A DNA stretch of 32,000 nt from Bifidobacterium longum subsp. longum JCM 1217 (GCF_000196555.1 NC_015067.1:1080001-1112000), one strand, 5' to 3'; shown: positions 1,051 to 19,830, counted from the first letter of the stretch. Made by a program: numbers and translations. The notes: generated by a model not told the origin, from the letters alone.

Positions 1051-2394
1051 TCAGCGGCTACGCCAGTATCCACTGACCGGATATCCGCTTCGGATATGAG
1101 GGCTCACCCAGACGCCGCCCCCGCCGAAGGATGCCGTATTCGCCTTTGGCTTCGGCATCCTTCCGTGCAGTGGCTGGATGTTCTCGTTTGCCTTCGAAAC
1201 CGCCTTACGCATGGATTCCCTCAGCGAATCGGGCAAACCGGCCGATGCCTCATCCAGATGGTCGAGAACGGCTCCCGCCATGGTCCGGGCGATATGCGCC
1301 ACACGCTCCCCGTCCAAACCGGCCTCCTCCGCGAAGGCCTCCCAGTCGGATGGGGTGAGCAGTTCCGCGAATTCGACTCCGTTGATGGGCATCGCCATCT
1401 CCTGATCCACATGAGGCCATATTCTGGTGACCGTCATGTCGTACATCGGCGCGAAACGGAACCCGTTTTCGGCAAGAACAATCGAATAGTTCTTGCCATG
1501 GGAGTCCGAATCGCCCGATGAGACGTTGAAGGCAAGCCGGCGAACCCACTCGTATCCGGTTTCATCGCTTGCATCGAAATGATGCAGGAAACGGACGCAG
1601 CTTGCGGCGTCGATTTCATACTTGGATTCGGGATCCATGCCCATGGCCTGCGCTAGATCCTCGCAATGGATTCGTCTCACGTTGTTTCCATCCACGATGC
1701 GGTCGAAACGTCGGGTGATGAAGGCCTCCGTCCCATTCGCGGTGAGAACGCCATGCTCGGATACCGGCAATCCGCAAAGAGTCCCGAGCGTCAGGGTGGC
1801 ATCCTCCACCCTGTGACTGCCGGGGCAATCCCTCATTTCAGGTTTGATGATATGGGTGGAGGGGATGGACGCGTTGGGCCAGAGCCAGACACCGGCACGT
1901 CGGGCGAGCGTGAACTTGGGCTGGCCTCCGGCGATGGAGAAACGGCATTTCGGCGTATCCCGCTCATAGAACTCATCCTCATCATCCCGTGCGAACCAGT
2001 TGTATCCGTTCGCACGCACATATCCTATCTGATTGCCGATTTCCTCCTCGTCGAGGGGTTTCGCCTCGATGGGATGATGCGGGAGTTCGGGCTTGTCCGA
2101 GAATACGAGTCCGCCTACTGTATCCGCATCCGCAAGAAGTTTGAACATGTCCGTCGAATCCAGATGGAGTCGCAGCGCCATCCTACGACGGGCGTTCTCA
2201 TCGTCGGGAAGCAGGTTTTCGAGAAAGGCCGACGCCGTTTTTCCGGAAGCTTTCCCGGTTCTGGGCAGACTGAGGCTTATCGGCGCGCCTTCCTTGGAAT
2301 CATAGTGGAATGAAACACGTCCGCCGGAGGTTCGTATGAATTCCCCCACATGGTTTCCGTCGGCCCAGACATGCAGTCGTTCTCCTCGCATCAT
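1051..2394 (-). CDS. hipA: HipA-family serine/threonine kinase toxin (type II TA)
   Basis: 447 aa. The N-terminus matches the HipA coupling domain (LHVWADGNHVGEF...SFHYD), followed by ENLLPD. The catalytic loop reads DSHGKNYSIVL (D-x-H-x-K-N). ATGA overlap with the upstream HTH gene. Confidence 0.9.
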   Translation of the reverse strand: MMRGERLHVWADGNHVGEFIRTSGGRVSFHYDSKEGAPISLSLPRTGKASGKTASAFLENLLPDDENARRRMALRLHLDSTDMFKLLADADTVGGLVFSDKPELPHHPIEAKPLDEEEIGNQIGYVRANGYNWFARDDEDEFYERDTPKCRFSIAGGQPKFTLARRAGVWLWPNASIPSTHIIKPEMRDCPGSHRVEDATLTLGTLCGLPVSEHGVLTANGTEAFITRRFDRIVDGNNVRRIHCEDLAQAMGMDPESKYEIDAASCVRFLHHFDASDETGYEWVRRLAFNVSSGDSDSHGKNYSIVLAENGFRFAPMYDMTVTRIWPHVDQEMAMPINGVEFAELLTPSDWEAFAEEAGLDGERVAHIARTMAGAVLDHLDEASAGLPDSLRESMRKAVSKANENIQPLHGRMPKPKANTASFGGGGVWVSPHIRSGYPVSGYWRSR

Positions 2395-2693
2395 GCCTCC
2401 AGATATTCGGGCGGAACCCTATAGGGTTTGACGCCGAGTGTGGCGAACACACGCAGGGCCGCTTCCAACGGTACGATCCCGCGTTCCGCCATATCGGTCA
2501 CGATGCTTTCGGAGACGCCGCTTCTGTCCGCGATTTCTGACGGGGTTCGGCCGATTTCCGTGATTCGTGCGGAAATAATCTCGCCCGCCTTTTCCAATGA
2601 GGGCATGTCGCGAATGCCGTCATGCGATGGTTCTTCGCTGATGGAGATCTCATCGGTTTTCGACGGCAAGGCGTCGAATTCGCTGTAATCCAT
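2391..2693 (-). CDS. hipB: HipB-like XRE-family HTH antitoxin
   Basis: HTH segment: RTPSEIADRSGVSESIVTDMAERG. 4-nt ATGA overlap with hipA. ATG 2693 is preferred over 2723 because AAAGGAGCGG lies 7-8 nt upstream of 2693. Confidence 0.75.
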   Translation of the reverse strand: MDYSEFDALPSKTDEISISEEPSHDGIRDMPSLEKAGEIISARITEIGRTPSEIADRSGVSESIVTDMAERGIVPLEAALRVFATLGVKPYRVPPEYLEA

Positions 2694-2854
2694 TTCTCTT
2701 CCGCTCCTTTCCGGAAAAAGCATGCGTCCCGAAAACCAGAGGATTGCGAATCAGGCTGCTCGAACCATCATAACGTCGAATGCCTTATTCCGGCACGCGC
2801 CAGATGACGGCGGCGTGAAGACCGGCTGCCTGGCCGGGTTCCCGTCGAAAGGCA

Positions 2855-5653
2855 TCAGGACGCCTCCCCCGTGAGCCGCGCGTACCCGTCGAACAGGACC
2901 TTCAGGCGCGTATCGTCATCGTCCTTCAGCCATTTCCCCGCGCCGAACGCCACGTCCGCGATCTTGTCCAATTCCCGGTGGGCGGCGCGTAGGTCGGTCG
3001 GCATGTAGTCGGGATCGTACAGGTCTGCCAGGGACTGGCCGGGATGGTTGGCTCGAGCCACCAGCACGTTCCTGCCGGCCTCGATCAATGCGGCGCGGGT
3101 TTCATCGTCGAGGGCGGGCAGGGGCAGGTTGTTCCAAACCACCGTGTTGCTGAAACGGCAGCGTGATTCCAGTCGCCCTCCAATCGTCTGCTGCCATGTC
3201 ATGAACATGCGTGATTCGATGACGGCGAATGCGAGGCCATCCCGGTCGGGACTGGTGTACACCATGTCGCCGGCGATGATGTCCGGCGTGTACCAGTCGC
3301 AGGTCATGTATTCCCGATCCTCGCTGAACACCTTCGGGATCGCAAGATAGTTCATGGACGGCTGATGGTCGTCACGGAACAGCCAAGGTGTCGCACGATG
3401 CCTGTAGGCATCGCCCTTCATTGGAGCATTGCGACGGTATTCGGCGCATGCGTCGACACGCTTCTTCAGGAACGAGGATTTCCTCAGTTCCCCCGGCTCC
3501 GCGTCCCTGAGCCATAGGCACCAGCGGTCCGTGCCGTTGATGAGCTCGCGTCCCATGCGAAACGGCCGGACGAAGCGTGCGGCGATGGGATCGGCCATGG
3601 CCTTGGCATATTCCTCACGGTCGGCGAGCAGCAGGTTGCCTCCATCCAGGGGCATGGAACCGGAATCGGTGACATCGAGAAGAGGCGAGACCGGTCCCGT
3701 CTTCTGGCTTCGTTTGCCTACGTACAGGTCGGGGCCGTCTATGAGATACCCGTTGATGTTGTCCACGGTGCGGGCGGTCGGTTCCCCATTGATGTCCGCG
3801 TATTCGAACAGTACGGGCGCGGGCTTCGCTTTCCTGTCCAGGCCGATGATGACGACGTGGACGTGCGCGTTGTCCGTGGACTGCGCGTCCCATGCGAACG
3901 TGCGGTGCGCGAAACGGATATGCCAGCCGTCCGCATGCAACGGTTTGAACAGGGGTTCCACGGGCTGCCCCTGGGTGATCGAATTGGTGGTGACGAATGC
4001 GAACGCCGCATCCGGTTTAGACAGGTAGGAGGCGGCCTTCCGGTACCATCCGGTCGCGTAGTCGAGATATCCGTCATACTGGCGGCCCCACACGGTCTTC
4101 AGATCATCGGTCTGACCGGCGGTCTTGGTGACGTGTCCGATGAACGGCGGGTTGCCCATCACATAGTCGCAGTGGTCGCCGGGTAATAGTTCGTTCCAGT
4201 CGAGGCGCAGGGCGTTGCCTTGTTGAATATGGGCCGTATCGGTGAACGGGAGCCGGGGCAGGCCGCTGATGGTCGACTCGGTGTCGTCCAATGCTTGCTG
4301 TTCCGCGATCCAGAGCGCGGTGCGGGCGACCGCGCAGGCGAACCCGTTGATTTCAATGCCGTGGAAGTGGCTGATGCTGACTTTGACGGGGTTGATGTCG
4401 TCGCCGAGGTCGAGGGCGAGTTGTCCGTCCTTGTCCAAATCGGCGAGGATCCGGTTCTCGATGCGACGCAGTTCCAGATAGGTTTCGGTCAGGAAGTTGC
4501 CGGAACCGCAGGCGGGGTCGAGGAACCGGAGGCCGGCTATCTTGTCGTGGAGTTTGTTGAGCGCGTTGGTGCGGGAACCGCCTGCGACCGGCCTGGCCTC
4601 CGCCCCCTCGAGTTCGGCTTTCAAACCGTCGAGGAACAACGGGTCGATGAGCCTGTGGATGTTCTTGACGGACGTGTAGTGCATGCCTCCCTTGCGCCGT
4701 TCGTCATGGCTGAGGGTTTCCTCCATGAGGGAACCGAAGATGACGGGGCTGATGCCGCTCCAGTCGAAGCCTTCGCTGATTTCCAGCAGGGCATCACGCA
4801 GCTCCCCGGTCAACGGGGGCACGTCGATCCGGTCGGCGAACAGGCCGCCGTCCACGTAGGGGAACGCTTTCAACGGTTCCGGCAGGTAACGACGCCGCTT
4901 CTCGATTGGTGTGTCCAACGCTTCGAACAGGTCGTACAGGTCTTCGCCCAGACGTTCGGGCGTGGATGCCGCCACATAGTCGCGGAGCGCGTCCGGCCGA
5001 AACAGGTTCGCGTCCTCCGCATACAGGCAGAACACGAGGCGTACGGTCAGCATCGCCAGCGCATCATGCTCCGCCGGATCATCGGGATGTTCGAAGCATT
5101 CCGCCAAAGAGTCATGGAGTCTGGCGACCCGTCGGCCGGCTTTGACGGACAGTTTCTCCTGTTGGACGACACGGGAGTGCTCGTGGGCGAACAGGCGGCC
5201 GATTTCGTTGATGTGCTCCGGCAGGCCGGCAAGCGTGAACTCCGATTGCGGGGTGCGGGCCAACGGGTCGGCTTCCAGATCGTAGAGGCGGAATGTTCCG
5301 AAATTGCAGGTGATGAGCACGGACGGGTGTTCCGATGGCGGCAGGCTGTCGGAATACCGTTTCGCCTGTTCCACCGGGGTGACCATGGTTCCCTGACGTG
5401 GTTCCGGCCTGTCCAAATCCACGCCGAGGCTCTTCTGTTCGACGAGCACACGGGCTTGGATCATGAGCGCGTCGATGAACCCGTCCAATGCGGTGCGCCG
5501 TTCGAACCAGAGCGTCTGCCTGTCGCTCGTGTTCGGGATGAGCAGCACCTTGTCCAACAGGTCACGCCAGTACTGTTGGGTCTCGGATTTCTCGTCGCCT
5601 CGTCCCGCCCATGATTCGGCGAACTTGGCCGCCCTGCTCTTCAGATCATCCAT
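2855..5653 (-). CDS. MmeI-family type IIL/IIG restriction-modification enzyme (fused endonuclease, N6-adenine methyltransferase and target-recognition domain), 932 aa
   Basis: N-terminal D...EXK nuclease motif (FIDALMIQARVLVEQKS). Motif I FLDPACGSGNFL. Motif IV VMGNPPFIGH. Size matches MmeI-type enzymes. Start set at ATG 5653 (MDDLKSRAAKF...); the Arg-rich 149 codons upstream in the ORF track overlap a better gene in another frame. Confidence 0.85.
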   Translation of the reverse strand: MDDLKSRAAKFAESWAGRGDEKSETQQYWRDLLDKVLLIPNTSDRQTLWFERRTALDGFIDALMIQARVLVEQKSLGVDLDRPEPRQGTMVTPVEQAKRYSDSLPPSEHPSVLITCNFGTFRLYDLEADPLARTPQSEFTLAGLPEHINEIGRLFAHEHSRVVQQEKLSVKAGRRVARLHDSLAECFEHPDDPAEHDALAMLTVRLVFCLYAEDANLFRPDALRDYVAASTPERLGEDLYDLFEALDTPIEKRRRYLPEPLKAFPYVDGGLFADRIDVPPLTGELRDALLEISEGFDWSGISPVIFGSLMEETLSHDERRKGGMHYTSVKNIHRLIDPLFLDGLKAELEGAEARPVAGGSRTNALNKLHDKIAGLRFLDPACGSGNFLTETYLELRRIENRILADLDKDGQLALDLGDDINPVKVSISHFHGIEINGFACAVARTALWIAEQQALDDTESTISGLPRLPFTDTAHIQQGNALRLDWNELLPGDHCDYVMGNPPFIGHVTKTAGQTDDLKTVWGRQYDGYLDYATGWYRKAASYLSKPDAAFAFVTTNSITQGQPVEPLFKPLHADGWHIRFAHRTFAWDAQSTDNAHVHVVIIGLDRKAKPAPVLFEYADINGEPTARTVDNINGYLIDGPDLYVGKRSQKTGPVSPLLDVTDSGSMPLDGGNLLLADREEYAKAMADPIAARFVRPFRMGRELINGTDRWCLWLRDAEPGELRKSSFLKKRVDACAEYRRNAPMKGDAYRHRATPWLFRDDHQPSMNYLAIPKVFSEDREYMTCDWYTPDIIAGDMVYTSPDRDGLAFAVIESRMFMTWQQTIGGRLESRCRFSNTVVWNNLPLPALDDETRAALIEAGRNVLVARANHPGQSLADLYDPDYMPTDLRAAHRELDKIADVAFGAGKWLKDDDDTRLKVLFDGYARLTGEAS

Positions 5654-6275
5654 GATTCCCAATGGTATCCGGTTTTCCGCATGCCGGTCGGATATCGACC
5701 ACATCATGCGGCGTGATCGTCCATAGGCAGGCTTGGATCCACCGGTCCGGCAGCCGTTTCGGATCCGCGATCGCGTTCGCCCTGTACTGGAGCCGTTTCT
5801 TTTCGGCCGGATCGTCCCAATGCTCGTCCAGCCACCGGTCGTATTCGGCGGGAGTCCACCTGTCGGCATCCAGCGGGGCGCACGGCCACCGGTTGATGAC
5901 GCAATGGTATTGGTCGAAATCCGTGCAAAGCACCCGGTTCTCATCGACCCGCAGATGCAGGAGCTCCAACCCGTCGTACTGGTGGCGGAAGCCCGGATAC
6001 CGTCGGTCGGGACGCGTATGCGCCCTGCCTTTCGAATCGACCCAGCGCGCCCACGCCCACAAGGGGGCCGCGTCCGGGTCCGGACGCGGCATGCCGGCAT
6101 GCTCCATTTCGCCCATCATCCACTCATAGGCGGGGCTGATGCCGTCCCACCAGTCCGCGTCGCCGTCGGCAATCGACCGTTCGCGGGCCGCCTTCCATGA
6201 GGGCGTGTACGAGCCGGAACGGTCGAACGCGGCCCTGACATCCGGCCACCGTTGGAACGAATACAGATCGATCAG
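5646..6275 (-). CDS. DUF3841-like protein (about 209 aa if initiated at CTG 6275; 157 aa if at ATG 6119)
   Basis: Pattern recalled for DUF3841: PLWAWARW...RPDRR...LHLRVDENRVLCTDFDQYHCVINRW...IQACLWTI. The frame stays open and protein-like for 52 codons upstream of ATG 6119. AGGAGG (6287-6282) + TTTTTT + CTG (6275-6273) follows directly after the stop of the preceding gene. 8-nt overlap with the RM gene start. Confidence 0.6.
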   Translation of the reverse strand: MIDLYSFQRWPDVRAAFDRSGSYTPSWKAARERSIADGDADWWDGISPAYEWMMGEMEHAGMPRPDPDAAPLWAWARWVDSKGRAHTRPDRRYPGFRHQYDGLELLHLRVDENRVLCTDFDQYHCVINRWPCAPLDADRWTPAEYDRWLDEHWDDPAEKKRLQYRANAIADPKRLPDRWIQACLWTITPHDVVDIRPACGKPDTIGNHG

Positions 6276-6291
6276 AAAAAACCTCCTTTAG

Positions 6292-6639
6292 TCAGCATTC
6301 CCATTTGACGCGGCGACGGTACAGGCGGGGATCGTCCCAATCGTCGTCCATGAGGCCGGTATCCGCCTCGCGCACGGCGAGACGGCAACGATCGCGAACC
6401 GTATGGCGGCCCACGTAATCCGGATACCGGTCATCCTCGTAGTCATGCCAGCTGTGCCAGCGCCGGCCGGATGGGATGTGCGCCTTCCGGCTCTGCGAAT
6501 ACGCATATGCGGTCACGTCGCCTTCAAGGGTCGGCGGTTCGGTCGGGTGCATCCAGTTGTGTCGCAGGTACGCGTACCCGTGCTCCAGCGCCTCGCGTTC
6601 GAGCACACGGTACGGCTTGTCCTTGAACGTTCGGGACAT
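6292..6639 (-). CDS. hypothetical protein (115 aa), first gene of the RM operon
   Basis: ATG 6639 preceded by GGAAGGAAAAAACGA. Trp/Asp/Arg-rich but non-repetitive sequence. Its stop lies 16 nt before the DUF3841-like start. Confidence 0.6.
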   Translation of the reverse strand: MSRTFKDKPYRVLEREALEHGYAYLRHNWMHPTEPPTLEGDVTAYAYSQSRKAHIPSGRRWHSWHDYEDDRYPDYVGRHTVRDRCRLAVREADTGLMDDDWDDPRLYRRRVKWEC

Positions 6640-6770: not shown

Positions 6771-6800
6771 TTGATATTGTACGTCAAGTTGACGTACAAT
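6771..6800 (+). promoter_or_regulatory. promoter plus palindromic operator of the DUF1778/GNAT TA operon; likely leaderless
   Basis: TTGATA (6771-6776), 18-nt spacer, TACAAT (6795-6800), with ATG at 6808 only 7 nt after the -10. A perfect inverted repeat ATTGTACGTCAA-G-TTGACGTACAAT (6776-6800) spans the spacer and the -10. Confidence 0.55.
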
Positions 6801-6807
6801 ACACGGT

Positions 6808-7086
6808 ATGACAAGCACTATTACGGAACCGGCACGCAGCTCACGCCTCAACATGCGCCTCACGCCAGAACAGCGCCAAACCATAGATATAGCGGCCTCT
6901 CTCAAAGGCTCCTCCATAACACAATGGGCCATCGACCATCTCGTCACCGACGCGCGCCGGGATATCGAAGAGGAGACCGTCACCCGTCTGCCCTCCAAGG
7001 CATTCGACGAATTTCTCAAGGCGCTTGACAGACCCATGCCGAAGGCCGCGAAGGATCTCATCGAAATGGAACCCGACTGGATATGA
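6808..7086 (+). CDS. DUF1778 (TacA/AtaR-type, RHH) antitoxin
   Basis: 92 aa. RLNMRLTPEQRQTIDIAASLKGSSITQWAIDHL is the characteristic DUF1778 N-terminus. ATGA overlap with the GNAT gene. Confidence 0.9.
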   Translation: MTSTITEPARSSRLNMRLTPEQRQTIDIAASLKGSSITQWAIDHLVTDARRDIEEETVTRLPSKAFDEFLKALDRPMPKAAKDLIEMEPDWI

Positions 7087-7574
7087 GATTCACCACACCA
7101 CGGCGCATAGAGTCCTCCGACATGCTCGATGGCTTTGACTGCGGCATTACGCCCATTGATGAATGGCTGTCCACGAGATCCCGTTCTGCCGAAAAACAGG
7201 GAACGGCCGTCGCGTACGTCACCTACGCCGAATCAGGGGAACTCGCCGGATTCTACTCTCTCAGCGCACACGCGATGGAACGCTCCAATATCGCCGGCGG
7301 ATGGCTACAGAGGAACGTTCCCGAGCGAGTGCCCATGATACTGCTCGGCATGCTCGGCGTGGACAGACGTTTCCAAGGCGAAGGCCTCGGCAGGAAACTG
7401 TTGCACGATGCGGTCATACGTTCCTTGAACATCAGCTCCGAACTCGGGGCGAGGGCCCTCATAGTGGATCCCGTGGATTCAGCCGCAGCTAGATTCTACG
7501 AGAACAACGGCTTCCAGCACATTCCGGAATCAGAACGAATGTTCCTCAAACTCGCGGGCAAGCATCTCGTCTAG
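7083..7574 (+). CDS. GNAT-family acetyltransferase toxin (TacT/AtaT-type)
   Basis: 163 aa. FDCGITPIDEWL near the N-terminus. Acetyl-CoA motif RRFQGEGLGRKLL. C-terminal FYENNGF. Its TAG stop shares the palindrome CTAG (7571-7574) with the stop of the convergent minus-strand gene. Confidence 0.9.
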   Translation: MRFTTPRRIESSDMLDGFDCGITPIDEWLSTRSRSAEKQGTAVAYVTYAESGELAGFYSLSAHAMERSNIAGGWLQRNVPERVPMILLGMLGVDRRFQGEGLGRKLLHDAVIRSLNISSELGARALIVDPVDSAAARFYENNGFQHIPESERMFLKLAGKHLV

Positions 7575-8265: not shown

Positions 8266-8817
8266 TCAGCGAATCAGCTCCAGAAGCCCTCGGTTCTCGT
8301 TCCTGCCGAACCGGTGCAGTCTTGAATATTCCTTGAGCGCGTGTTCGAGCCGGCCGGGCTCGGCCCAGTATCGTTCCAGCCATGCGCGGCTTTTCACCTG
8401 CTTCATGCCCAGTTCTCTTTTGCAATAGTCGGAGGGCTTCAGCCGTGTGGAGCCGTTCGTGTATTTGCCGTACATGCCCTCGTTGATGATGACCAGCATT
8501 TCGATTTCGGGATGGGTTCGCAGGTTCACGACCTCGGCCGCATGTTCGTACCCTCGAGGTATGCGCAGTACATCCGAGTCCGAATCAACTATTCGGACGA
8601 TGAGCAATGGATGTTCGCCGTATGACATGTTGAGGAACCGGTCGAGCATCTGTTTTGATTCCTTGCGCGTGAAGTACCATGTTCCGCGCAGCTGGTTGGG
8701 CACGATAAAATCGGCCGGTATTGTCAGTTCCCCTCGTTCGAGGAGGGTCGTGAGTATGTACTGTTCGGCCACGCCCTCGCAGACGAACAGCACATACTGG
8801 CCTTCCGCGTTAAGCAT
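8266..8817 (-). CDS. Toprim-like protein (RloB/DUF4276/OLD-nuclease-like), partner of the upstream ATPase
   Basis: The N-terminal YVLFVCEGVAEQYIL contains the conserved Toprim Glu in a CEG context, as in RloB. IVDSDSD is a DxD motif about 70 residues later. ATG 8817 (GAAAGG 8 nt upstream) overlaps the ATPase TAA (8812-8810). Alternative ATG at 8835. Confidence 0.6.
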   Translation of the reverse strand: MLNAEGQYVLFVCEGVAEQYILTTLLERGELTIPADFIVPNQLRGTWYFTRKESKQMLDRFLNMSYGEHPLLIVRIVDSDSDVLRIPRGYEHAAEVVNLRTHPEIEMLVIINEGMYGKYTNGSTRLKPSDYCKRELGMKQVKSRAWLERYWAEPGRLEHALKEYSRLHRFGRNENRGLLELIR

Positions 8818-9991
8818 GCACGTACCTTTCCGCATAATCCTGGAGGGCGCGGACGGCCGCGTATGAGGGCGCGGTACCGGGCACCCGGTTGGCGAAGAAG
8901 GAGACGCTCTTCTTCAAATCGGTGCGGCCCAGGTATGCGCCCAGATTCCGGAGGGCGAAGCCTTTTCCATCGCGGACGGCGAACCATATCGAATCCTTGC
9001 GGGTGAAATGGTCCAGCAGCTCCGGATAGTGGGTGGAGAACAGGAGGGTGGCCCCGTGCGGGTTCGTGACCGGGGAGGCGAACAGGTCCATGATGGTGAA
9101 TACGAGCTGCTTGTTGATGCTGTTCTCCAGTTCGTCCACAATCAGATAGCCGCCCGCGCGCAGTGTCTCCAATGCTCGGCCGACCAGTGCGCCGCCTCTC
9201 AGGGTGCCGGATGAGACCATGTTGACCAGCGAGTTCGGGGTGACCTCCCGCTCCTTGCCCTCATTGCGGAATTTCAGATGGATTCCGTCCTTGTCGTAGT
9301 CGAGGCGTTCGATGCTGGCATCGAACAGCGTCACGACGGGGCGGGCCGGGCTGACGGTGAGCGTCGGGGACACCGGCAGCAGTTCGGTCGCGATGTCGGT
9401 GTCCTTGACGAAGGCCCCGCAAATACTCCGGTCGGGCGGCAGATACCGTTTCGCGTCGGCGGACAGTTCGCCCCGGACGCCGGGCCTGCCCACGTTGCGG
9501 GATGAGAGCACGGTCCACCGTTCCGGATCCAACGTGCCGTTCATGGCGGAGGCAAGCATTTTCTTGCTGAGCTTGCCATGGTGGATGCTCAGGGTCTCAC
9601 GGATGAACCTCAACGGCGTGCGACCCTCGCCTGTCCGCTCGAGCAGGCTGTCGATGAGATGGAAGCGACCGTCCTGTTCGAACAGCGCGCGCACCCCGAT
9701 CCGGTCGTCCATGGTGTCGTACAAAGGGAACAGGTCGGGGTTCAACGATCCCAGCGACATGCCGCCGGCGACGGCGAGGGCGAGTTCGGTGACCCTCAAC
9801 GCGGTGGTCTTGCCGGAGGCGTTGATGCCGGCGACGCCGATGGCCGTGTTGATGCTGATGTTGCGTGCGGCGCCGTCGAGCATGTGCGTGTATCCGGGTT
9901 CCCTTACGGCGTCGATGGCGTACAGGTCCATCCTGCATTCATGGTTTTCGTATAGGCGCAGGCCGCTGATGGCGTAGCTCAACAACCTCAT
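8810..9991 (-). CDS. ABC-type (AAA_21-like) ATPase
   Basis: Walker A GINASGKTT, Walker B LIVDELENS, H-loop-like FSTHYPELL. ATG 9991 preceded by AAGGGAGA. The 15 codons upstream in the ORF track lack an RBS. Confidence 0.85.
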   Translation of the reverse strand: MRLLSYAISGLRLYENHECRMDLYAIDAVREPGYTHMLDGAARNISINTAIGVAGINASGKTTALRVTELALAVAGGMSLGSLNPDLFPLYDTMDDRIGVRALFEQDGRFHLIDSLLERTGEGRTPLRFIRETLSIHHGKLSKKMLASAMNGTLDPERWTVLSSRNVGRPGVRGELSADAKRYLPPDRSICGAFVKDTDIATELLPVSPTLTVSPARPVVTLFDASIERLDYDKDGIHLKFRNEGKEREVTPNSLVNMVSSGTLRGGALVGRALETLRAGGYLIVDELENSINKQLVFTIMDLFASPVTNPHGATLLFSTHYPELLDHFTRKDSIWFAVRDGKGFALRNLGAYLGRTDLKKSVSFFANRVPGTAPSYAAVRALQDYAERYVHA

Positions 9992-10077
9992 GCTTTCTCC
10001 CTTGTAAACGTTTTTTCTGTATACATAGGCTATCACTGAATGGAGACCGTCGATACCCGGAAACCGTCAGAACGCCT

Positions 10078-13899: not shown

Positions 13900-14056
13900 G
13901 GGTGTTTCCTTTCCCGTATTCGCCGATGCGGGCCAGCAGTCCGCCGAACATGCGTGATATGTCGCGCGCCGCCATACCGTTGTCCCAGGTCGTGAACCGG
14001 TGCAGCTCCCACTGGTCGGCCGCGGCTTTCGCGCTTTCGTCAAGAGGATTCGTCAT
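13886..14056 (-). CDS. hypothetical small protein (56 aa)
   Basis: ATG 14056 (MTNPLDESAKAAADQWELHRF...) forms an ATGA overlap with the FemAB-family stop. The same 9-residue N-terminus recurs at 15464 with different codons. Confidence 0.45.
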   Translation of the reverse strand: MTNPLDESAKAAADQWELHRFTTWDNGMAARDISRMFGGLLARIGEYGKGNTLGKA

Positions 14057-15324
14057 CGACCGGCTTCCTTCAGTAGTTTGATTGTGTGCGCGGCTTCGCT
14101 GAGCTTGTATCGGATCGTGCTGGTCGGTAGAGTGCATGCTCCAACCAGCTCCTCGGCATGCCCGTCGAACCCCTGCTTGAATTCCAACACCCCACGGCCC
14201 TCGTCATCCGGGTCGTTGAATACGCCGGTGATGCCGTACATGTTGAAGCGTGGCATCCGGCTACGGTTGACGCACAGGCGGAGCATTCCCTCATGGACCA
14301 ACAAGGCGGGAGCCTGATACGAACGGTATTCGGGGAGCGCGCCGGCTGTCAGATACACGATTTCACGCCGGTGTTCCACGAACAGGGCGCATGCCGCAGG
14401 AATGACGCTGCCGCGGGAAGCCAGTGCGCGCGCCTCGTTGAGGCGGTGTTCCATGGCGGTCAGGTTGCGGGTGATGTCGTCCTCCTGCCGTTTGATTCGA
14501 GATGTGGGATGATTCTCGTATTGGGTTCGCAGCAGGTCCAGCCGTTCGGCGAGTTTGTCGTATTCGGCGGTCAGTCTGGTCAGAAGTTCCCCGGCGTGGA
14601 TCTCGGCGAGCATGAAACGGGCTCGGCTTCCGAATGTCTCCTTGAACCGGCGGTAATAGTCTTCGTCGCGGGCCGTGAAGCCGCGTCGTCCTGCGGTCTT
14701 CCGTTCGATGTCCACGAACGTGCCGAGCTCATCCGCACCGAGTTCGCGTACTCGCACGCCTGACGTTCTCGCCCGGTTCACGCTCCACCGGGTGCGCGGC
14801 TTATAGGAGGCGAGCAGCGTCTTCTCATCCTTGATCCCGTCGAAGGTTCTGATCCAATTCCAACGGTTGACGACTTTTCCGTATCCGGTGTCGAATCCCT
14901 GATGCCTCCAGCCGCATGACCGGTAGGCGTCGAGGATCATCGTGTCGGGGGCCCCGATCGGGTTCCCGGCCGCGTCATGCCTTTGGTATTCGATGTTCGG
15001 CCAGCATGTGACGGACACGGCATGGCGGCGGCGTGCGGCGAGCCGGATTCCACGGGTCATGTGTTCGAGGAGTTTCGGATCATCGAGCGCGCATAACGGT
15101 CCGAGCCAGATGCTGCCTTCCGGGCCAAGCCGGCCTCGTGTCCACGCGATCAGGCAGCCGGCCGATAGAACGCCGTTGCGGGTCACGCCGATCAGATCCG
15201 TGGCGTCCACGTCCGGTTCGGCGAGATGAGCCATGTGCCCGGTCTGCTGGAATCCGCCCTGCGGATGTCCGGCAGACAGCAGATCCAGTTGGTTGAAGGT
15301 GATGGGTGTGATGTCGTAGATCAA
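14053..15324 (-). CDS. FemAB/MurM-family peptidoglycan aminoacyl-tRNA transferase-like protein
   Basis: 423 aa. Central coiled-coil insert (LTAEYDKLAERLDLLRTQYE...RLNEARALA). C-terminal FNMYGITGVFNDPDDEGRGVLEFKQGFDG is typical of the family. TTG start in a TTGA overlap, with GGAAGGA 8 nt upstream. Confidence 0.8.
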   Translation of the reverse strand: MIYDITPITFNQLDLLSAGHPQGGFQQTGHMAHLAEPDVDATDLIGVTRNGVLSAGCLIAWTRGRLGPEGSIWLGPLCALDDPKLLEHMTRGIRLAARRRHAVSVTCWPNIEYQRHDAAGNPIGAPDTMILDAYRSCGWRHQGFDTGYGKVVNRWNWIRTFDGIKDEKTLLASYKPRTRWSVNRARTSGVRVRELGADELGTFVDIERKTAGRRGFTARDEDYYRRFKETFGSRARFMLAEIHAGELLTRLTAEYDKLAERLDLLRTQYENHPTSRIKRQEDDITRNLTAMEHRLNEARALASRGSVIPAACALFVEHRREIVYLTAGALPEYRSYQAPALLVHEGMLRLCVNRSRMPRFNMYGITGVFNDPDDEGRGVLEFKQGFDGHAEELVGACTLPTSTIRYKLSEAAHTIKLLKEAGR

Positions 15325-15464
15325 TTCAGTCCTTCCATTATGAGACCGGTTCCGGCATGAAGAGCGTATGTGAAGCGGATCATCATCGATATCCCCCCTA
15401 CCCTCCCGTGTTTGGGTTCGTCTAGGATCAGGGGCACGGCGCTCTCATCCAACGGGTTCGTCAT
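15321..15464 (-). CDS. possible small ORF (47 aa)
   Basis: Hand-translated as MTNPLDESAVPLILDEPKHGRVGGISMMIRFTYALHAGTGLIMEGLN. Its TGA overlaps the FemAB TTG. The first 9 residues match the 14056 gene, with synonymous differences in four codons. Below the ORF-track length cut-off. Confidence 0.3.
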   Translation of the reverse strand: MTNPLDESAVPLILDEPKHGRVGGISMMIRFTYALHAGTGLIMEGLN

Positions 15465-15687
15465 CGCGGCCTCCCTCGTTCGCGATCGTCTGGAGAATGC
15501 CCGCCAGGCAGCCGATTTCGCCGGGGCTCAACCGGATTCGGCGGATCGTGCCGCCGCTGTCGGTGGACAGCACCCACGTGCGGACGCCGTGTCGGCCGTC
15601 GCCCGGCAGCCAGATGAGGCTCACATGCCCGCAGGAGGCGCCCGTGATCATGCCGGCGCGGCGTTCGACTTCGATTTCCGGCTTCAT
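15445..15687 (-). CDS. hypothetical protein (80 aa)
   Basis: ATG 15687 (MKPEIEVERRAGMITGASCGHVSLIWLPGDG...) forms an ATGA overlap with the HAD gene stop. Confidence 0.5.
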   Translation of the reverse strand: MKPEIEVERRAGMITGASCGHVSLIWLPGDGRHGVRTWVLSTDSGGTIRRIRLSPGEIGCLAGILQTIANEGGRDDEPVG

Positions 15688-16247
15688 CGCACGCCTCCCA
15701 GGATCAGGGGCACCGCGGCCCACCGGCGGAACATGCGGCCCGGCGCGGCCGTGCAGTACGCATGATCGGGATGCAGTACGGTCACGCCCTTCGCGGCCAT
15801 CGCCTCCAATGTGACGGGCCTGTCGTCGATGAGCACGTCCGGTGTGAGCAGCGTCTTGTCGCCGTTATAGTAGCCGTCGAACTGGAAGCCGTTGCGGTGC
15901 AGCCAGCGTTGGCTTTCGCCGCGCCGGTCGTCCGCGCGGCTGGTCGCCATGATGACGTTCCAGCCCGCATCGTGCAGCTGGTTCAAGGCTTCGGCGGCTC
16001 CCTCATAGGGTTCTTCGCGTGAGTAGAGACCGTCGGCGACGGCGCGCGTATGCCACCAGCGGAACGATTTCGCGTCGCCGCTGAACGGCCATCCGCCGGT
16101 CAGCGTGAAATCGTAGGCCGTCGGCTCCGGGCACGGGCATTCGTCCTCGCCATGTCCGCATTCGCGGATGTAGTCGCGCAGACCGTTCGTATAGTCGGCG
16201 ATCGTGTTGTCGATGTCCACCATGATTGTCCTGGTCAAGGCTGTCAC
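15684..16247 (-). CDS. HAD-superfamily 5'(3')-deoxyribonucleotidase-like phosphatase
   Basis: HAD motif I is VDIDNT near the N-terminus. VIMATSR serves as motif II-like and LIDDRP as motif IV-like. Size and layout resemble NT5C-type enzymes. GTG 16247 in a GTGA overlap; alternative ATG at 16223. Confidence 0.65.
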   Translation of the reverse strand: MTALTRTIMVDIDNTIADYTNGLRDYIRECGHGEDECPCPEPTAYDFTLTGGWPFSGDAKSFRWWHTRAVADGLYSREEPYEGAAEALNQLHDAGWNVIMATSRADDRRGESQRWLHRNGFQFDGYYNGDKTLLTPDVLIDDRPVTLEAMAAKGVTVLHPDHAYCTAAPGRMFRRWAAVPLILGGVR

Positions 16248-16480
16248 CTCTTTTCAAGCTGTTCCGCCAGTTCGTCAAGCCAGGCATCGACGGCTTCGCT
16301 CTCATACCCGTAGGAGCCGCAGGGCAGGTTCAGATGCCTGATCTCGTCGGCGGCAAGGCCTCCCGGCTCCCCGGGGTGGGCCAGGGTGAACGAGGCGAGG
16401 CGCTGCACCAGGTCGACGGGTACCGGCATGTAGGATGCGGGAGCCGATACGAGCGGGAACATCGGGTATGCCATGCTCAT
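16244..16480 (-). CDS. hypothetical protein (78 aa)
   Basis: ATG 16480 forms an ATGA overlap with the RNA ligase stop (MSMAYPMFPLVSAPASYMPVPVDLVQRL...). The upstream part of the 205-aa track ORF was rejected. Confidence 0.5.
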   Translation of the reverse strand: MSMAYPMFPLVSAPASYMPVPVDLVQRLASFTLAHPGEPGGLAADEIRHLNLPCGSYGYESEAVDAWLDELAEQLEKR

Positions 16481-17514
16481 AGTCCGTTCTTCGTCAGGTA
16501 TTTGTTGTTGATGATTTTGAAGCACCGATTGGCTCCCAGTTCGTTCGCCAATCCTTCGGACAACTGCTGGTCTTCGCGCAGATGCCAGACGATGCCCTCG
16601 TCCAGACGGTCTTTGGTGACGTTGCCACGCAACCCGTCTACTTTGGCGATCATGTCGTCCACGCTCCCCGTCAATGCCCACTCGTTTTCGTCGAGTTCGG
16701 GAACGGCAAGATTCGGCATTCCCGTCGGCCACTGGTCGCGGTCGATCTTGTGATGGTCTTTCCAGACGGCGAAGACGAACGGACGTTGGGCCGGCAGTTT
16801 CAAACGGTTTGATTGGATACCGGGGCCACATAGCTCGAACTGGACGGCCATGCCGGGCCATAGCATCTTGTCCAACTGGAATCTTTTGGCGAGCCGCATG
16901 TTCGAGGACATGGAGTCAAGCTCCCAGTTGCGTGAGTACACGTGGACTTGTCCTCGTTCGTCCATGCTGAGCGTGGTGCTGGCGCCATCGACCTTCACGG
17001 TCGGCACGGCTTTCAACGTCTTGATTTCATCCCAGTGGTCGGTGAGCGTCTGCAAACGTGGCGCGTCCGACTTGGAGCAGGGCGCGTCGAACCGGCCAAT
17101 CTGAGCACCGCCCATCGGCAGGGGCTCCTCGTATTTGAGCACATTCGCCTTATCGGTGATGTCCGTGCCGACAGGGGGCGTATACCGGAATCCGAGTTCA
17201 TCCAAACGCATGATGAGACCCTGCGAATACACTCCGCGCAGTTTCACGGTGCGCAGCACATGGCCGGTGATTTCCATGGAACCGACGATCATGGTCTTCT
17301 GACCGCGAGCCTGGAACGCCTTGTAACGCGGGTCATAGGCGGGCAGAAGACTGTCCGTCTCGAAATAGGCGACCCTGTCCCCCGGCTTCAGATGCATGTC
17401 CTTGCCGACGACCACACGCCACCCCAATATGCGGGCGACTTCGATGCGATCGGCCCCCTCGATGGGCTCGATGTTGGTGATTTCCTGTACGCTGACGAGT
17501 TTCCTGCTGCTCAT
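16477..17514 (-). CDS. RNA ligase, DRB0094/Rnl5-like family
   Basis: 345 aa. The N-terminal OB-like segment KLVSVQEITNIEPIEGADRIEVARILGWRVVVGKD...GDRVAYFETDSLLP is characteristic. Nucleotidyl-transferase motif I is VKVDGAS. Confidence 0.8.
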   Translation of the reverse strand: MSSRKLVSVQEITNIEPIEGADRIEVARILGWRVVVGKDMHLKPGDRVAYFETDSLLPAYDPRYKAFQARGQKTMIVGSMEITGHVLRTVKLRGVYSQGLIMRLDELGFRYTPPVGTDITDKANVLKYEEPLPMGGAQIGRFDAPCSKSDAPRLQTLTDHWDEIKTLKAVPTVKVDGASTTLSMDERGQVHVYSRNWELDSMSSNMRLAKRFQLDKMLWPGMAVQFELCGPGIQSNRLKLPAQRPFVFAVWKDHHKIDRDQWPTGMPNLAVPELDENEWALTGSVDDMIAKVDGLRGNVTKDRLDEGIVWHLREDQQLSEGLANELGANRCFKIINNKYLTKNGL

Positions 17515-17609
17515 GCCGCGACTCCCATGCTGTATCGTTCGGGCGAGATGGTGATGATCATCTCGTTTTCGTCGTAGGCTCCGTCTTTCATGCCTGTGAC
17601 CTTTGTCAT
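17511..17609 (-). CDS. possible micro-ORF (32 aa) coupled to the RNA ligase
   Basis: Hand-translated as MTKVTGMKDGAYDENEMIITISPERYSMGVAA. Its TGA overlaps the ligase ATG (ATGA). There is no other support. Confidence 0.25.
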   Translation of the reverse strand: MTKVTGMKDGAYDENEMIITISPERYSMGVAA

Positions 17610-17652
17610 ATTCAAACCGTGTCCATGTCCCGCTCCCCGCCGGTTCGCGTGG

Positions 17653-17874
17653 TCAGACGGGGCATGGGGCGCGCCCCTCGGACACGGTGTCCGATTCGAT
17701 GGTCAGGACCGGTTCGCCCTCGTCGTCGACGAGCGTGGCGGGCCGTCCCGTCGCGTCCGCCGCGGCGCGCGTGGCGGCGAGCATGCCGGCGAACGTGAGC
17801 CCGCCGGGCAGTGGGGTCGTGTAGTCGACGGGCCCGTAGGCGCCGTCCCGGGTCGCGTGGATCTCGTATTCCAT
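17653..17874 (-). CDS. hypothetical protein (73 aa), first gene after the non-coding iteron region
   Basis: ATG 17874 ([25 protein letters not shown]...) is directly preceded by GGGGACGCATACCCGGGGGC. The upstream His/Thr/Met-rich part of the 128-aa track ORF is a translation of the iterons. Confidence 0.5.
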
Positions 17875-17902
17875 GCCCCCGGGTATGCGTCCCCATACAC
17901 GC

Positions 17903-18208
17903 GGTCCGGGTGTATGCATTCCGGTCCGCGTGTATGCATCCGTATGCATCCGGGGATGCATACATCTTTTCTTTCCGTTTCGGCTTGGTTCCGACGTTCC
18001 GGGGATGGTCCGGAGGCGTGTATGCATTGTATGCATCATTCCCTTATAGGGGATTCGGGAAAAAGGAAGGAAACCCCATATATTGATGCATACAATGCAT
18101 ACAAGATAAAGGAATTATATTTTTTCCTTTATTTATAAGGGTTTTCGGGCTTTTTCCGGGCTTTTTCTGTATGCATCCCCGGATGCATACAGATGCATAC
18201 ACGCATAC
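17903..18208. repeat. iteron / nested inverted-repeat region around an AT-rich core (candidate origin, oriT or operator array)
   Basis: GTATGCAT at 17912, 17932, 17942, 18020, 18029 and 18169. ATGCATAC at 17956, 18086, 18095, 18183 and 18193. 37-bp arms 17928-17964 and 18168-18204 match at 36 of 37 as an inverted repeat. Inner perfect 17-bp inverted repeat at 18020-18036 and 18086-18102. AT-rich stretch at about 18100-18140 with TATAAT on the minus strand (18119-18114). Confidence 0.85.
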
Positions 18209-18227
18209 AAAACGGGCCGGAAAACTA

Positions 18228-18284
18228 TACAATATTGTAAAGGTCGGAGGTGAGACTTTACAATATTGTAAAGCCTCACCTCCG
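18228..18284. promoter_or_regulatory. two TACAATATTGTAAAG boxes; the second is embedded in a 40-bp near-perfect palindrome
   Basis: Boxes at 18228-18242 and 18259-18273. The palindrome CGGAGGTGAGaCTTTACAATATTGTAAAGcCTCACCTCCG (18245-18284) has one mismatched pair. Confidence 0.8.
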
Positions 18285-18372
18285 GGATGCGGTCGCCCCG
18301 CCGGCACATCGGGATGCCTTTTTTTCAGTTCGCGACCAGATCCGACGCCATATCCATCGGCTCGCCGCCTTG

Positions 18373-18393
18373 GCCCCGCCGTTCCGGCGGGGC
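18373..18393 (-). terminator. candidate GC-rich hairpin terminator (no U-tract)
   Basis: GCCCCGCCG-TTC-CGGCGGGGC forms a 9-bp all-GC stem with a 3-nt loop, about 100 nt downstream of the stop at 18491. The lack of a T-run makes the assignment tentative. Confidence 0.3.
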
Positions 18394-18490
18394 GCGCGCC
18401 GAACCTCACGGACAACGGTTCCTTGCCCAAATCGGGCTGGAAAACGGCTGATCCGGTTCTGAAGAGCCGGGCTTGCGCCGCAAAAACCGG

Positions 18491-18802
18491 TCAGGGTTTT
18501 CTCCTGTCCAGGTCGAGTTCGAGAAGCGTGCGCACCCGGTCGAGTTCGCCGGCGACGTCCGTCATCCACGCGGCGGCCCGTCTGAGACCGTCCGGCGTGA
18601 CCGTCCCGCCCGGCGTCGGACCGCGCCGGGCCCGGAGCCGGATGCCGCCGGCGGGCGTGGGGCAGGCGTCCACGCGGGGCGGCTCCTCCGGGTCGCCGTC
18701 AAGCCGGAATCCCGTGACCCGGTAGCGGACGGTCCCGTCGTCCCGGCGGATCCAGTCGATCCGGTAACGGCCCGTATGGCCCAATGTCAGGACGTCGTTC
18801 AT
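18491..18802 (-). CDS. hypothetical protein (103 aa)
   Basis: ATG 18802 (MNDVLTLGHTGRYRIDWIRRDDGTVRYRVTGFRLDG...). Last gene before the non-coding region. Confidence 0.5.
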   Translation of the reverse strand: MNDVLTLGHTGRYRIDWIRRDDGTVRYRVTGFRLDGDPEEPPRVDACPTPAGGIRLRARRGPTPGGTVTPDGLRRAAAWMTDVAGELDRVRTLLELDLDRRKP

Positions 18803-18880
18803 GGCCGCCCCGTCCGGGGCGTGCGGCGCACGACCCATTCGACCGGCCGTCCGCCGGGCAGCCCCTCGGGGCGGATGGTC

Positions 18881-19210
18881 TCAGTCGACATAATCGTATC
18901 CCGTCCAGTCGCGCAGCAGCTCGCATACGGTGACGTCTTTGACGAGCAGCACGTGATGATGGTCCTCCGCGTCCTCGAGCGTGACGAGCGCGCACCCGGT
19001 GCGGTCCGGCTTCGGGTCCATGGGGTCGGCGACGTCCTCCCATGCGACGGGCGTGCTCCCGTCCGCCATGTTTTCGTCGTACGGGGCGGGAGCCCACGTG
19101 CCGTCCGGCAGACGTTCGAACGTGTCCGTGGAATCCCGCCAGGCGTCCATGAGCCGTGTTTTGAGATGACCGGTGATGATGGCCCTGAACTGATGATCGT
19201 TGTCGTTCAT
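18881..19210 (-). CDS. hypothetical acidic protein (109 aa)
   Basis: ATG 19210 (MNDNDHQFRAIITGHLKTRLMDAWRD...) is directly preceded by GGGGACGCATGCCACGGGGC. Confidence 0.55.
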   Translation of the reverse strand: MNDNDHQFRAIITGHLKTRLMDAWRDSTDTFERLPDGTWAPAPYDENMADGSTPVAWEDVADPMDPKPDRTGCALVTLEDAEDHHHVLLVKDVTVCELLRDWTGYDYVD

Positions 19211-19264
19211 GCCCCGTGGCATGCGTCCCCGGACGGGCATGGGACGCGTCCGCGGCGAAGCGCC

Positions 19265-19669
19265 TCACCGGGCGTACGGGATCGCGTGCAGGCCGGCCCC
19301 GTCCGCCAGCAGCATGCCCCGGTCGCCGATCGGCGTGCCGTCCGGCATGGTGCTGAACGTGTCGCACAGCCACACGCCCTCCACGTTACCGGCCGACGGG
19401 ACGGGCGTATGGCCGGACACCTGGGTCAGGCGGCCGTCGTAGTCCCCGTGGCCGGGACGCGCCCACAACGGTCCGTCGTCGTCCATGTACAGGGCGGCCA
19501 GGCTTCCGGGACGGTCCGGCAGGCGGTTCAGACGGGCCGCGATCCGGTCGGCGGTCATGCCCGTCCAGGCGTGCCCGAACCGGCGGATCCCCCACCGGCG
19601 GGTGAGTCCCGCGTGCGTGGCGACGATCGTGCCGTCCGTCCATGCGATCCGCGTCGGGATGTCCTTCAT
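19265..19669 (-). pseudogene. C-terminal fragment of a calcineurin-like metallophosphoesterase (lambda-PP-like), separated from its N-terminal part by an IS
   Basis: Carries IVATHAG (motif IV) and VSGHTPVP (motif V). Motifs I-III lie in the fragment at about 21291-21611, on the other side of the TnpB element. Confidence 0.65.
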
Positions 19670-19679
19670 GAGCTCTTGA

Positions 19680-19830
19680 CGTCCTCCCCTCGGCTGAAGC
19701 CGGGGGATTCCTCCCGTCCTGACGATGGGAGAGGTTCTGGTCTCTAAGAGACCGCCACGGATTCGCGTGTAGCGTTTCCGTTGGTCTTACGTCCCTGTTC
19801 GACCGGGGTGCCGTCCGCGCCCCACAGGTT
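19680..19830 (-). ncRNA. candidate TnpB-associated omega RNA (right-end RNA)
   Basis: Position only. It covers the 3' end of tnpB plus about 65 nt downstream, including the bulged hairpin at 19686-19706. Ends are not determined. Confidence 0.3.

Follow-up and report, generated by a model that had tools for sequence, protein, structure and literature searches.

The window analysed here, a stretch of 32,000 nucleotides from Bifidobacterium longum subsp. longum JCM 1217 (NC_015067.1:1080001-1112000), carries on its minus strand a gene for an MmeI-family restriction-modification (R-M) enzyme that begins within the end of a gene for a DUF3841 protein. DUF3841 and MmeI constitute a two-gene module, of which a 115-aa gene further upstream is an exchangeable neighbour. 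The pairing is confined to one bifidobacterial lineage, and MmeI enzymes neither generally nor necessarily have DUF3841 as a partner. The reading favoured here, with moderate confidence, is that DUF3841 is a cargo gene that would also act as the leader cistron to which translation of MmeI is coupled, the two genes making up a bicistronic, lineage-specific module.

An MmeI gene that starts inside a DUF3841 gene

The enzyme gene (2855-5653) is a minus-strand open reading frame (ORF) of 932 aa, running from an ATG at 5653 to a stop at 2855. The five MmeI domains of Pfam, MmeI_N, MmeI_hel, MmeI_Mtase, MmeI_TRD and MmeI_C (PF20464, PF20465, PF20473, PF20466 and PF20467), are present in the order of the family with E-values from 1e-16 to 9e-81. 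The single chain thus has the layout of the family: the nuclease at the N-terminus, then a helical spacer, a gamma-class N6-adenine methylase, and the target recognition and C-terminal domains. The PADLOC type IIG model REase_MTase_IIG covers the protein end to end (1167 bits), and MmeI itself (PDB 5HR4) is collinear with it over residues 3-928 (E 8.5e-169), bearing out the assignment to the type IIL enzymes made in an earlier note on this DNA. The longest possible frame reaches 6100; since the domain alignments begin at residues 2-7 counted from 5653, the ATG at that position is taken as the true start. All three catalytic motifs are intact: the PD-(D/E)XK nuclease motif D61...E72-Q-K74 (within 5429-5482), the S-adenosylmethionine (SAM) motif I of the methylase, DPACGSGNFL (residues 379-388, 4490-4519), and the NPPF of motif IV (residues 501-504, 4142-4153). 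The nuclease motif, GFID61...VE72QK74S, was paired by inspection with GFVD...IEMKS of MmeI, as the phmmer register is shifted there. Because the three motifs are all present, the protein is probably an active, canonical single-chain type IIL enzyme. Members of the MmeI family cleave about 20/18 nt from an asymmetric site and methylate one strand only. A B. longum type IIG enzyme with the motif CGGGAG, which need not be the enzyme of the window, has been reported (PMC4618763).

Directly upstream lies a gene of 209 codons (5646-6275, minus strand) that had been described as DUF3841-like. A profile search confirms the family (PF12952) at 29.5 bits, narrowly above the gathering score of 27, and 15 of 15 relatives in its clade, defined by DUF3841 at or above about 75% identity, match as well. 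Codon 1 of the frame is CTG (6275-6273), and in the lineage of the window no ATG, GTG or TTG precedes codon 53; it is because of this CTG that a mechanical list of ORFs gives merely a 157-aa ORF from an internal ATG (5646-6119). A strong Shine-Dalgarno sequence, AAAGGAGG (6282-6289, minus strand), is located 6 nt upstream of the CTG, and a GGAG-type element at equal spacing is kept in all CTG-type loci. Starts in the clade fall into four classes: 8 loci have ATG at codon 1; 5, the megaplasmid pMP7017 among them, have CTG and a TTG at codon 4; 6, among them the window, have CTG without any canonical start close by; and in 4 the CTG is preceded, nine codons further upstream, by an ATG. The ratio of nonsynonymous to synonymous polymorphism (pN/pS) of codons 2-52 is 0.33 among loci without a canonical start and 0.29 in the remainder of the gene. 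This purifying selection on codons 2-52 points to a conserved, non-canonical CTG start. The same codons encode the first strand and helices in an AlphaFold model of good confidence (predicted local distance difference test score, pLDDT, 89.9), homologues of the protein begin MIDLYSFQ, and in the NCBI annotation of a contig identical to the window a 209-aa protein is called from the CTG. Given the strong Shine-Dalgarno sequence, the selection on codons 2-52, the predicted fold and the NCBI call, full-length DUF3841 is probably made from the CTG, at a low level.

The two genes overlap by 8 nt, ATGGATGA (5646-5653, minus strand), with the ATG of MmeI inside the last codons and the stop of DUF3841. 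The overlap is exactly as the earlier note had given it, and it is strictly conserved in the clade, being intact in 17 of 21 full-length related loci and present in all nine loci found by way of MmeI. Ahead of the ATG the Shine-Dalgarno sequence is poor or absent (ATTGGGAATC in most loci, TGTCCC in some), and the MmeI ATG is predicted to have no usable ribosome-binding site of its own. The closest non-bifidobacterial MmeI homologues, from Dietzia, Gordonia and L. plantarum (about 39% identity), stand by themselves, set off by intergenic spacers of 120-230 nt; the bifidobacterial architecture is therefore unusual for the family, as had been proposed. Re-initiation appears the most likely route to MmeI translation because the ATG lies in the DUF3841 stop region and seems to lack its own ribosome-binding site: ribosomes terminating on DUF3841 would re-initiate at the MmeI ATG. 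In the lineage of the window, with a weak CTG behind a strong Shine-Dalgarno sequence, the rate of DUF3841 translation would set a low level of MmeI, and such a level would be useful for a self-methylating nuclease that enters new hosts on conjugative or integrative elements.

Conservation of the pair and exchange of its neighbours

The DUF3841-MmeI pair, with the same junction, is found in about 45 related loci, on B. longum chromosomal elements and on megaplasmids of the pMP7017 type. Clade loci collected from assemblies and metagenomes by means of DUF3841 have MmeI sequence directly downstream in 30 of 31 cases, and the sole exception breaks 20 nt before the DUF3841 stop. DUF3841 is directly upstream in all nine IMG/VR loci collected by means of MmeI, as it is in three contigs that match the window exactly and in six of six megaplasmids. 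The surroundings of the pair vary. The upstream position has four variants, namely a HAD-like gene of 209 aa, the complete 115-aa gene, the same gene as a remnant, and a 67-aa gene; downstream there is mostly a 145-aa gene overlapping the MmeI stop, and HipBA in the window. Within the enzyme, the N-terminal half is 89-100% identical across loci and the target recognition domain (TRD) falls into four classes with about 99, 66, 57 and 32% identity to that of the window (2855-3736, compared with L004-L075), a pattern that suggests specificity switching by recombination within the MmeI gene. As flanks and TRD vary and the N-terminal half is kept, the conserved unit is DUF3841 plus the 5' half of MmeI. 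Since one type of DUF3841 accompanies four TRD alleles, it is not tied to one specificity, and the role of specificity modulator, one of those suggested in the earlier note, is unlikely.

The HAD-like gene, which has a DxDGV motif and a weak match to HAD_SAK_2, stands directly upstream of DUF3841 in about 20 loci (for example L004, 9368-9997). It was considered as a possible paralogue of DUF3841 and rejected on an hhalign probability of 2.5%, HAD-like with a DxDGV motif being the better description. In the locus of the B. longum subsp. infantis type (proteins P0009 and P0021; L028 and L030) DUF3841 is fused in frame to a remnant of about 100 aa of MmeI. Here DUF3841 and MmeI have decayed together: the apparent natural fusion in P0009 is really a 1-nt deletion (CATG to CTG) in a decayed locus with a truncated MmeI.

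The earlier note had placed both genes in a tight operon with a third, the 115-aa gene (6292-6639, minus strand). Three consecutive minus-strand genes are indeed present, and the distance of 16 nt that it gave is correct, counted from the stop of the 115-aa gene to codon 1 of DUF3841; the codon taken as a start there, CTG, is non-canonical. The notion of a conserved three-gene unit did not survive, the 115-aa gene being present in part of the related loci: about 10 have it complete and about 6 as a remnant, and in the others, which lack it, the HAD-like 209-aa gene or the 67-aa gene takes its position. The 115-aa protein has no match in Pfam, PHROG, NCBIfam or PADLOC, its AlphaFold model is uninformative (pLDDT 51), and its homologues are limited to Bifidobacterium; one of these, 47% identical, sits in an unrelated conjugative-element context without DUF3841. 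A role of the gene as antitoxin or partner was rejected because its distribution does not track DUF3841 and the 149-aa neighbour of the distant homologue is not a DUF3841. A programmed frameshift from the 115-aa gene into DUF3841 was likewise dismissed, there being stops in both frames ahead of the T-run. A promoter and terminator scan of the minus-strand unit gave nothing usable.

The DUF3841 protein, its broken copies and its distant relatives

DUF3841 of the window is a compact alpha/beta single domain, rich in tryptophan (14 W) and with an isoelectric point (pI) of 5.6. A search with the clade profile retrieves 1236 family representatives, the long ones scanned being PF12952 members, and nearly all members of the family are single-domain proteins of 175-220 aa. 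One representative, P0196 (332 aa), is a fusion with a SocA/Panacea antitoxin domain. The residues conserved across the family (Q8, Y50, W52, W73, W75, P89-D-x-R92, D119, H124, N128, Q181 and W185) are all present in the window protein. Each of the DUF3841 protein clusters of the cassette comprises from hundreds up to about a thousand sequences. No match was found among PDB sequences, PHROG, NCBIfam, PADLOC or defence models. Foldseek against PDB gave no significant structural neighbour, the best being DarT (E 0.28, template modelling (TM) score 0.30), and the structural search of BFVD gave one unnamed phage protein (E 1.5e-4). An ADP-ribosyltransferase or DarT-like toxin was rejected on the Foldseek values in PDB and BFVD (E 0.28-1.5, TM about 0.3), on an empty PDB profile search, and on the family's having neither an invariant Glu nor a His/Arg catalytic triad. 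A DNA-mimic anti-restriction protein was set aside because the protein, with its pI and its tryptophans, is not strongly acidic. A full-text search of the literature library found DUF3841 or PF12952 in the main text of no paper. DUF3841 is a real, selected protein that belongs to the cargo of the mobile element.

It is very improbable that the 115-aa gene and DUF3841 are a toxin-antitoxin-like (TA-like) pair unrelated to MmeI, with the upstream gene as antitoxin and DUF3841 as a weakly translated toxin. The layout of a small gene, a 16-nt gap and a weak CTG start would suit such a pair, TA systems surround the locus, and both the Panacea fusion in one distant family member and the weak top Foldseek matches to the toxin DarT point in the same direction. 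The DarT matches are not significant, however, no PADLOC model is matched, and the conserved residues hold no catalytic triad of the ADP-ribosyltransferase type. Moreover, the 115-aa gene is missing from most DUF3841 loci, its 47%-identical homologue occurs without DUF3841, and DUF3841 genes of the ATG type have no such partner.

An accessory role at the level of the protein is possible. DUF3841 would then be a subunit or modulator of this clade of MmeI, the whole being a two-component variant of the type IIL systems. This is an unlikely though credible alternative, in which the protein might regulate restriction while the element becomes established in a new host, or act as a sensor or as a second effector. 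In its favour, the linkage within the clade is absolute, about 45 loci keep the overlapping junction although recombination has occurred on either side of the pair and within MmeI, and DUF3841 is under purifying selection. On the other hand, the same DUF3841 goes with four TRD alleles, the protein matches no PADLOC or defence model, MmeI reportedly works as a single polypeptide, and there are about eight loci in which DUF3841 is broken and MmeI is intact. In six of these (L032, L033, L035, L069, L073 and L075) a TnpB element of the IS200/IS605 type, about 1.35 kb long, is inserted at about codon 57 of DUF3841; in two others a nonsense codon cuts the protein to 140 aa (L022) or 199 aa (L019). 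The MmeI sequence of these loci is undisrupted, in L032 and L033 with a match that reaches the contig end. All are metagenome assemblies, and intactness of MmeI was read from the ORF or a full-length match, not from activity. As DUF3841 is broken while MmeI is intact, intact DUF3841 is not required to tolerate the enzyme, and these loci argue against an antitoxin-like role or that of an obligatory methylation helper. The same TnpB insertion site occurs alongside different MmeI TRD alleles, so that either the position is a hot spot for insertion or the element went in long ago and recombination came afterwards.

Outside the clade the association does not hold. The DUF3841 subfamily of the window is confined to Bifidobacterium, and among relatives of at most 60% identity in other bifidobacteria none of five loci adjoins MmeI. 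In B. goeldii DUF3841 adjoins an AAA_14/DUF4143 ATPase, and B. scardovii has two copies, near RelA_SpoT and MazG genes. In B. callitrichidarum it is preceded by a 112-aa gene and, before that, by a HAD-like gene; the latter in turn follows the gene, 1.3 kb upstream, of a stand-alone MmeI_N-like protein of 278 aa that resembles the nuclease domain only (L002, 7900-10600). In B. vespertilionis (L003, 5927-12090) a DUF3841 homologue lies 146 nt upstream of cas9 on the same strand. A CRISPR array with 10 or more 36-nt repeats is found downstream in this locus.

Farther afield, the 31 family members with usable flanks have mixed neighbours: glycosidases, transporters, regulators, Fic, KilA-N, Z1/HNH and an HsdM-like fusion. 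Only one of the 31 (L083, 6001-11741) has an MmeI-like neighbour. There a terminator-like hairpin comes after a canonical DUF3841, and 175 nt downstream of DUF3841 lies an MmeI-like gene that is broken at about residue 400 by an element with two large serine recombinases; no DUF3841 is near any of the 28 relatives of this MmeI for which upstream sequence was at hand. In another distant locus (L079, 784-6389) a canonical DUF3841 overlaps a 615-aa ORF by 13 nt, and the next protein, of 922 aa, is in its N-terminal half a type I HsdM-like methyltransferase. Among 347 plasmids with an MmeI-like gene, 6 also have a detectable DUF3841, all of them Bifidobacterium megaplasmids. The scan of the collection was seeded with a 12-sequence subset of DUF3841, a broad alignment of 40 sequences being too divergent. 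The enrichment of DUF3841 beside type IIL genes by which the earlier note would have judged its accessory role is therefore absent outside the clade (0/5, 1/31, 0/28 and 6/347), and at the level of the family these counts essentially refute it.

These distant loci bear in both directions on a role as partner. Other bifidobacterial DUF3841 genes do stand beside DNA-targeting or defence genes (cas9 in B. vespertilionis, the MmeI_N-like gene in B. callitrichidarum), L083 is one independent DUF3841/MmeI-like adjacency in a distant lineage, and L079 has DUF3841 near an HsdM-like gene. Against this, the association is missing from the family as a whole, with 341 of the 347 MmeI plasmids devoid of DUF3841, and in L083 the two genes are separated by 175 nt that include a terminator-like hairpin. 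That DUF3841 was recruited as a partner of MmeI, for example as a brake or sensor timing cutting while the element is transferred into a new host, is accordingly given as unlikely. A further alternative is pure hitch-hiking: DUF3841 would be unrelated cargo behind which MmeI was inserted once, the adjacency persisting by descent with no functional or expression consequence, and DUF3841 perhaps acting together with the HAD-like gene often found in front of it. In B. callitrichidarum a HAD-like gene and DUF3841 are neighbours (37 and 49% identical, respectively) with no full MmeI, B. goeldii and B. scardovii have DUF3841 by itself, elsewhere it occurs among housekeeping genes of mixed kinds, and all linked loci belong to one clade. 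Hitch-hiking is nonetheless rather improbable, because the 8-nt overlap and the apparent lack of a separate ribosome-binding site make full independence of MmeI expression from DUF3841 translation unlikely, and because the junction survives while its surroundings are exchanged.

The coupled leader cistron is favoured over these alternatives, and several points weigh against it in turn. Coupling and CTG initiation both rest on inference from sequence. The purifying selection on DUF3841 (pN/pS 0.27-0.39) indicates that the protein matters in itself, so a leader cistron cannot be its whole role. The roughly 45 linked loci are not independent, as they go back to one ancestral cassette, and conservation of the junction could reflect just the lack of intergenic space for recombination. 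Finally, in the loci disrupted by TnpB, MmeI would need to be coupled to a residual ORF from an internal ATG.

The mobile element and relation to known systems

The module sits in the defence and TA cargo of an integrative element of B. longum that has the pMP7017 megaplasmids as relatives. Small genes, all pointing one way, make up the region and end in a tyrosine integrase, so it is an integrated mobile element; B. longum CP137052.1 is 100% identical to the window across the module region. A block consisting of ATP-grasp, AAA_21, a 183-aa gene, DUF3841 and MmeI is also carried by the B. breve conjugative megaplasmid pMP7017 and is shared by five related B. longum megaplasmids. In the window a HipB-like helix-turn-helix gene (2391-2723, minus strand) lies 131 nt downstream of MmeI, next to a gene for a HipA kinase toxin with HipA_C and Couple_hipA domains (1051-2394, minus strand). 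On the other side a divergent pair, a ribbon-helix-helix antitoxin TacA and a TacT-like GNAT toxin (6808-7574, plus strand; TacA1 and Acetyltransf domains), has been inserted upstream of the 115-aa gene and is present only in window-type loci. A perfect inverted repeat of 11 bp, TTGTACGTCAA-C-TTGACGTACAA, overlaps a promoter-like site of this pair (6777-7574 region) and is probably its operator. Beyond it an AbiLi-like AAA_21 ATPase (8810-10036, minus strand; PADLOC AbiLi, E 2e-28) is followed by an overlapping gene of 183-189 aa, both within 8266-10036; the two genes, also found on pMP7017, may be an AbiL-like abortive-infection pair. The element further has FemAB, an RNA ligase (PHA02142 OB-fold and RNA_ligase), an NT5C-like gene and a TnpB gene (14053-21192), and past the end of the window, as seen in L063, an N6_N4 methyltransferase and the tyrosine integrase.

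The enzyme itself is ordinary, and its pairing with DUF3841 is a lineage-specific peculiarity. With MmeI (PDB 5HR4; Morgan et al. 2008, PMC2582602) it shares collinear homology over the full length, five domains, the nuclease motif, motif I and NPPF, and the swappable TRD with several alleles is typical of the family. Unlike MmeI, the gene is not stand-alone, its start being embedded in DUF3841 and fixed there in one bifidobacterial lineage. Also close is pMP7017, whose DUF3841 and MmeI (88 and 79% identity) overlap by the same 8 nt and which has, upstream, the synteny of ATP-grasp, AAA_21 and the 183-aa gene in common with the window. That pair differs in being plasmid-borne, in its 67-aa upstream gene, its TTG at codon 4 and its TRD allele, and downstream in the 145-aa gene overlapping the MmeI stop, where the window has HipBA. 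The supplement of the pMP7017 paper puts B7017_p0173 (DUF3841) beside B7017_p0174 (MmeI-like) and the pairing is not discussed; for the MmeI homologue the paper reports moderate transcription (PMC10832533). Fixed overlap of MmeI with a DUF gene is a clade-restricted variant of the stand-alone MmeI layout, present in a published supplement and never analysed.

Two other groups of systems offer partial parallels. Type II R-M systems regulated by controller (C) proteins likewise have a small upstream gene co-expressed with a nuclease on mobile DNA, and keeping the nuclease low during establishment is a plausible shared purpose. DUF3841, in contrast, has neither a helix-turn-helix nor similarity to C proteins, and the control proposed here would be translational, not transcriptional. 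PglX of bacteriophage exclusion (BREX) systems and DrmMI of the defence island system associated with restriction-modification (DISARM) resemble the window enzyme in having an MmeI-related methyltransferase core that works with additional genes. Matches to the PglX and DrmMI models are weak and partial, however (NCBIfam PglX, 22.9 bits against a cut-off of 400), the window enzyme retains its own nuclease domain, and no PglZ, BrxC or Drm genes are among the Pfam lists of neighbours.

Genetic manipulation of bifidobacteria is hindered above all by R-M systems, and the cassette described here is widespread in human-gut B. longum and B. breve, on megaplasmids as well as chromosomal elements. If expression of MmeI is set by translation of DUF3841, the module would illustrate in a simple way how mobile DNA can carry a single-chain nuclease-methylase safely, and the coupling, if true, would offer a handle for lowering the restriction barrier. 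If a partnership between the proteins were true instead, it would be the first two-component type IIL system and would provide a first function for the DUF3841 family of roughly 1200 clusters.

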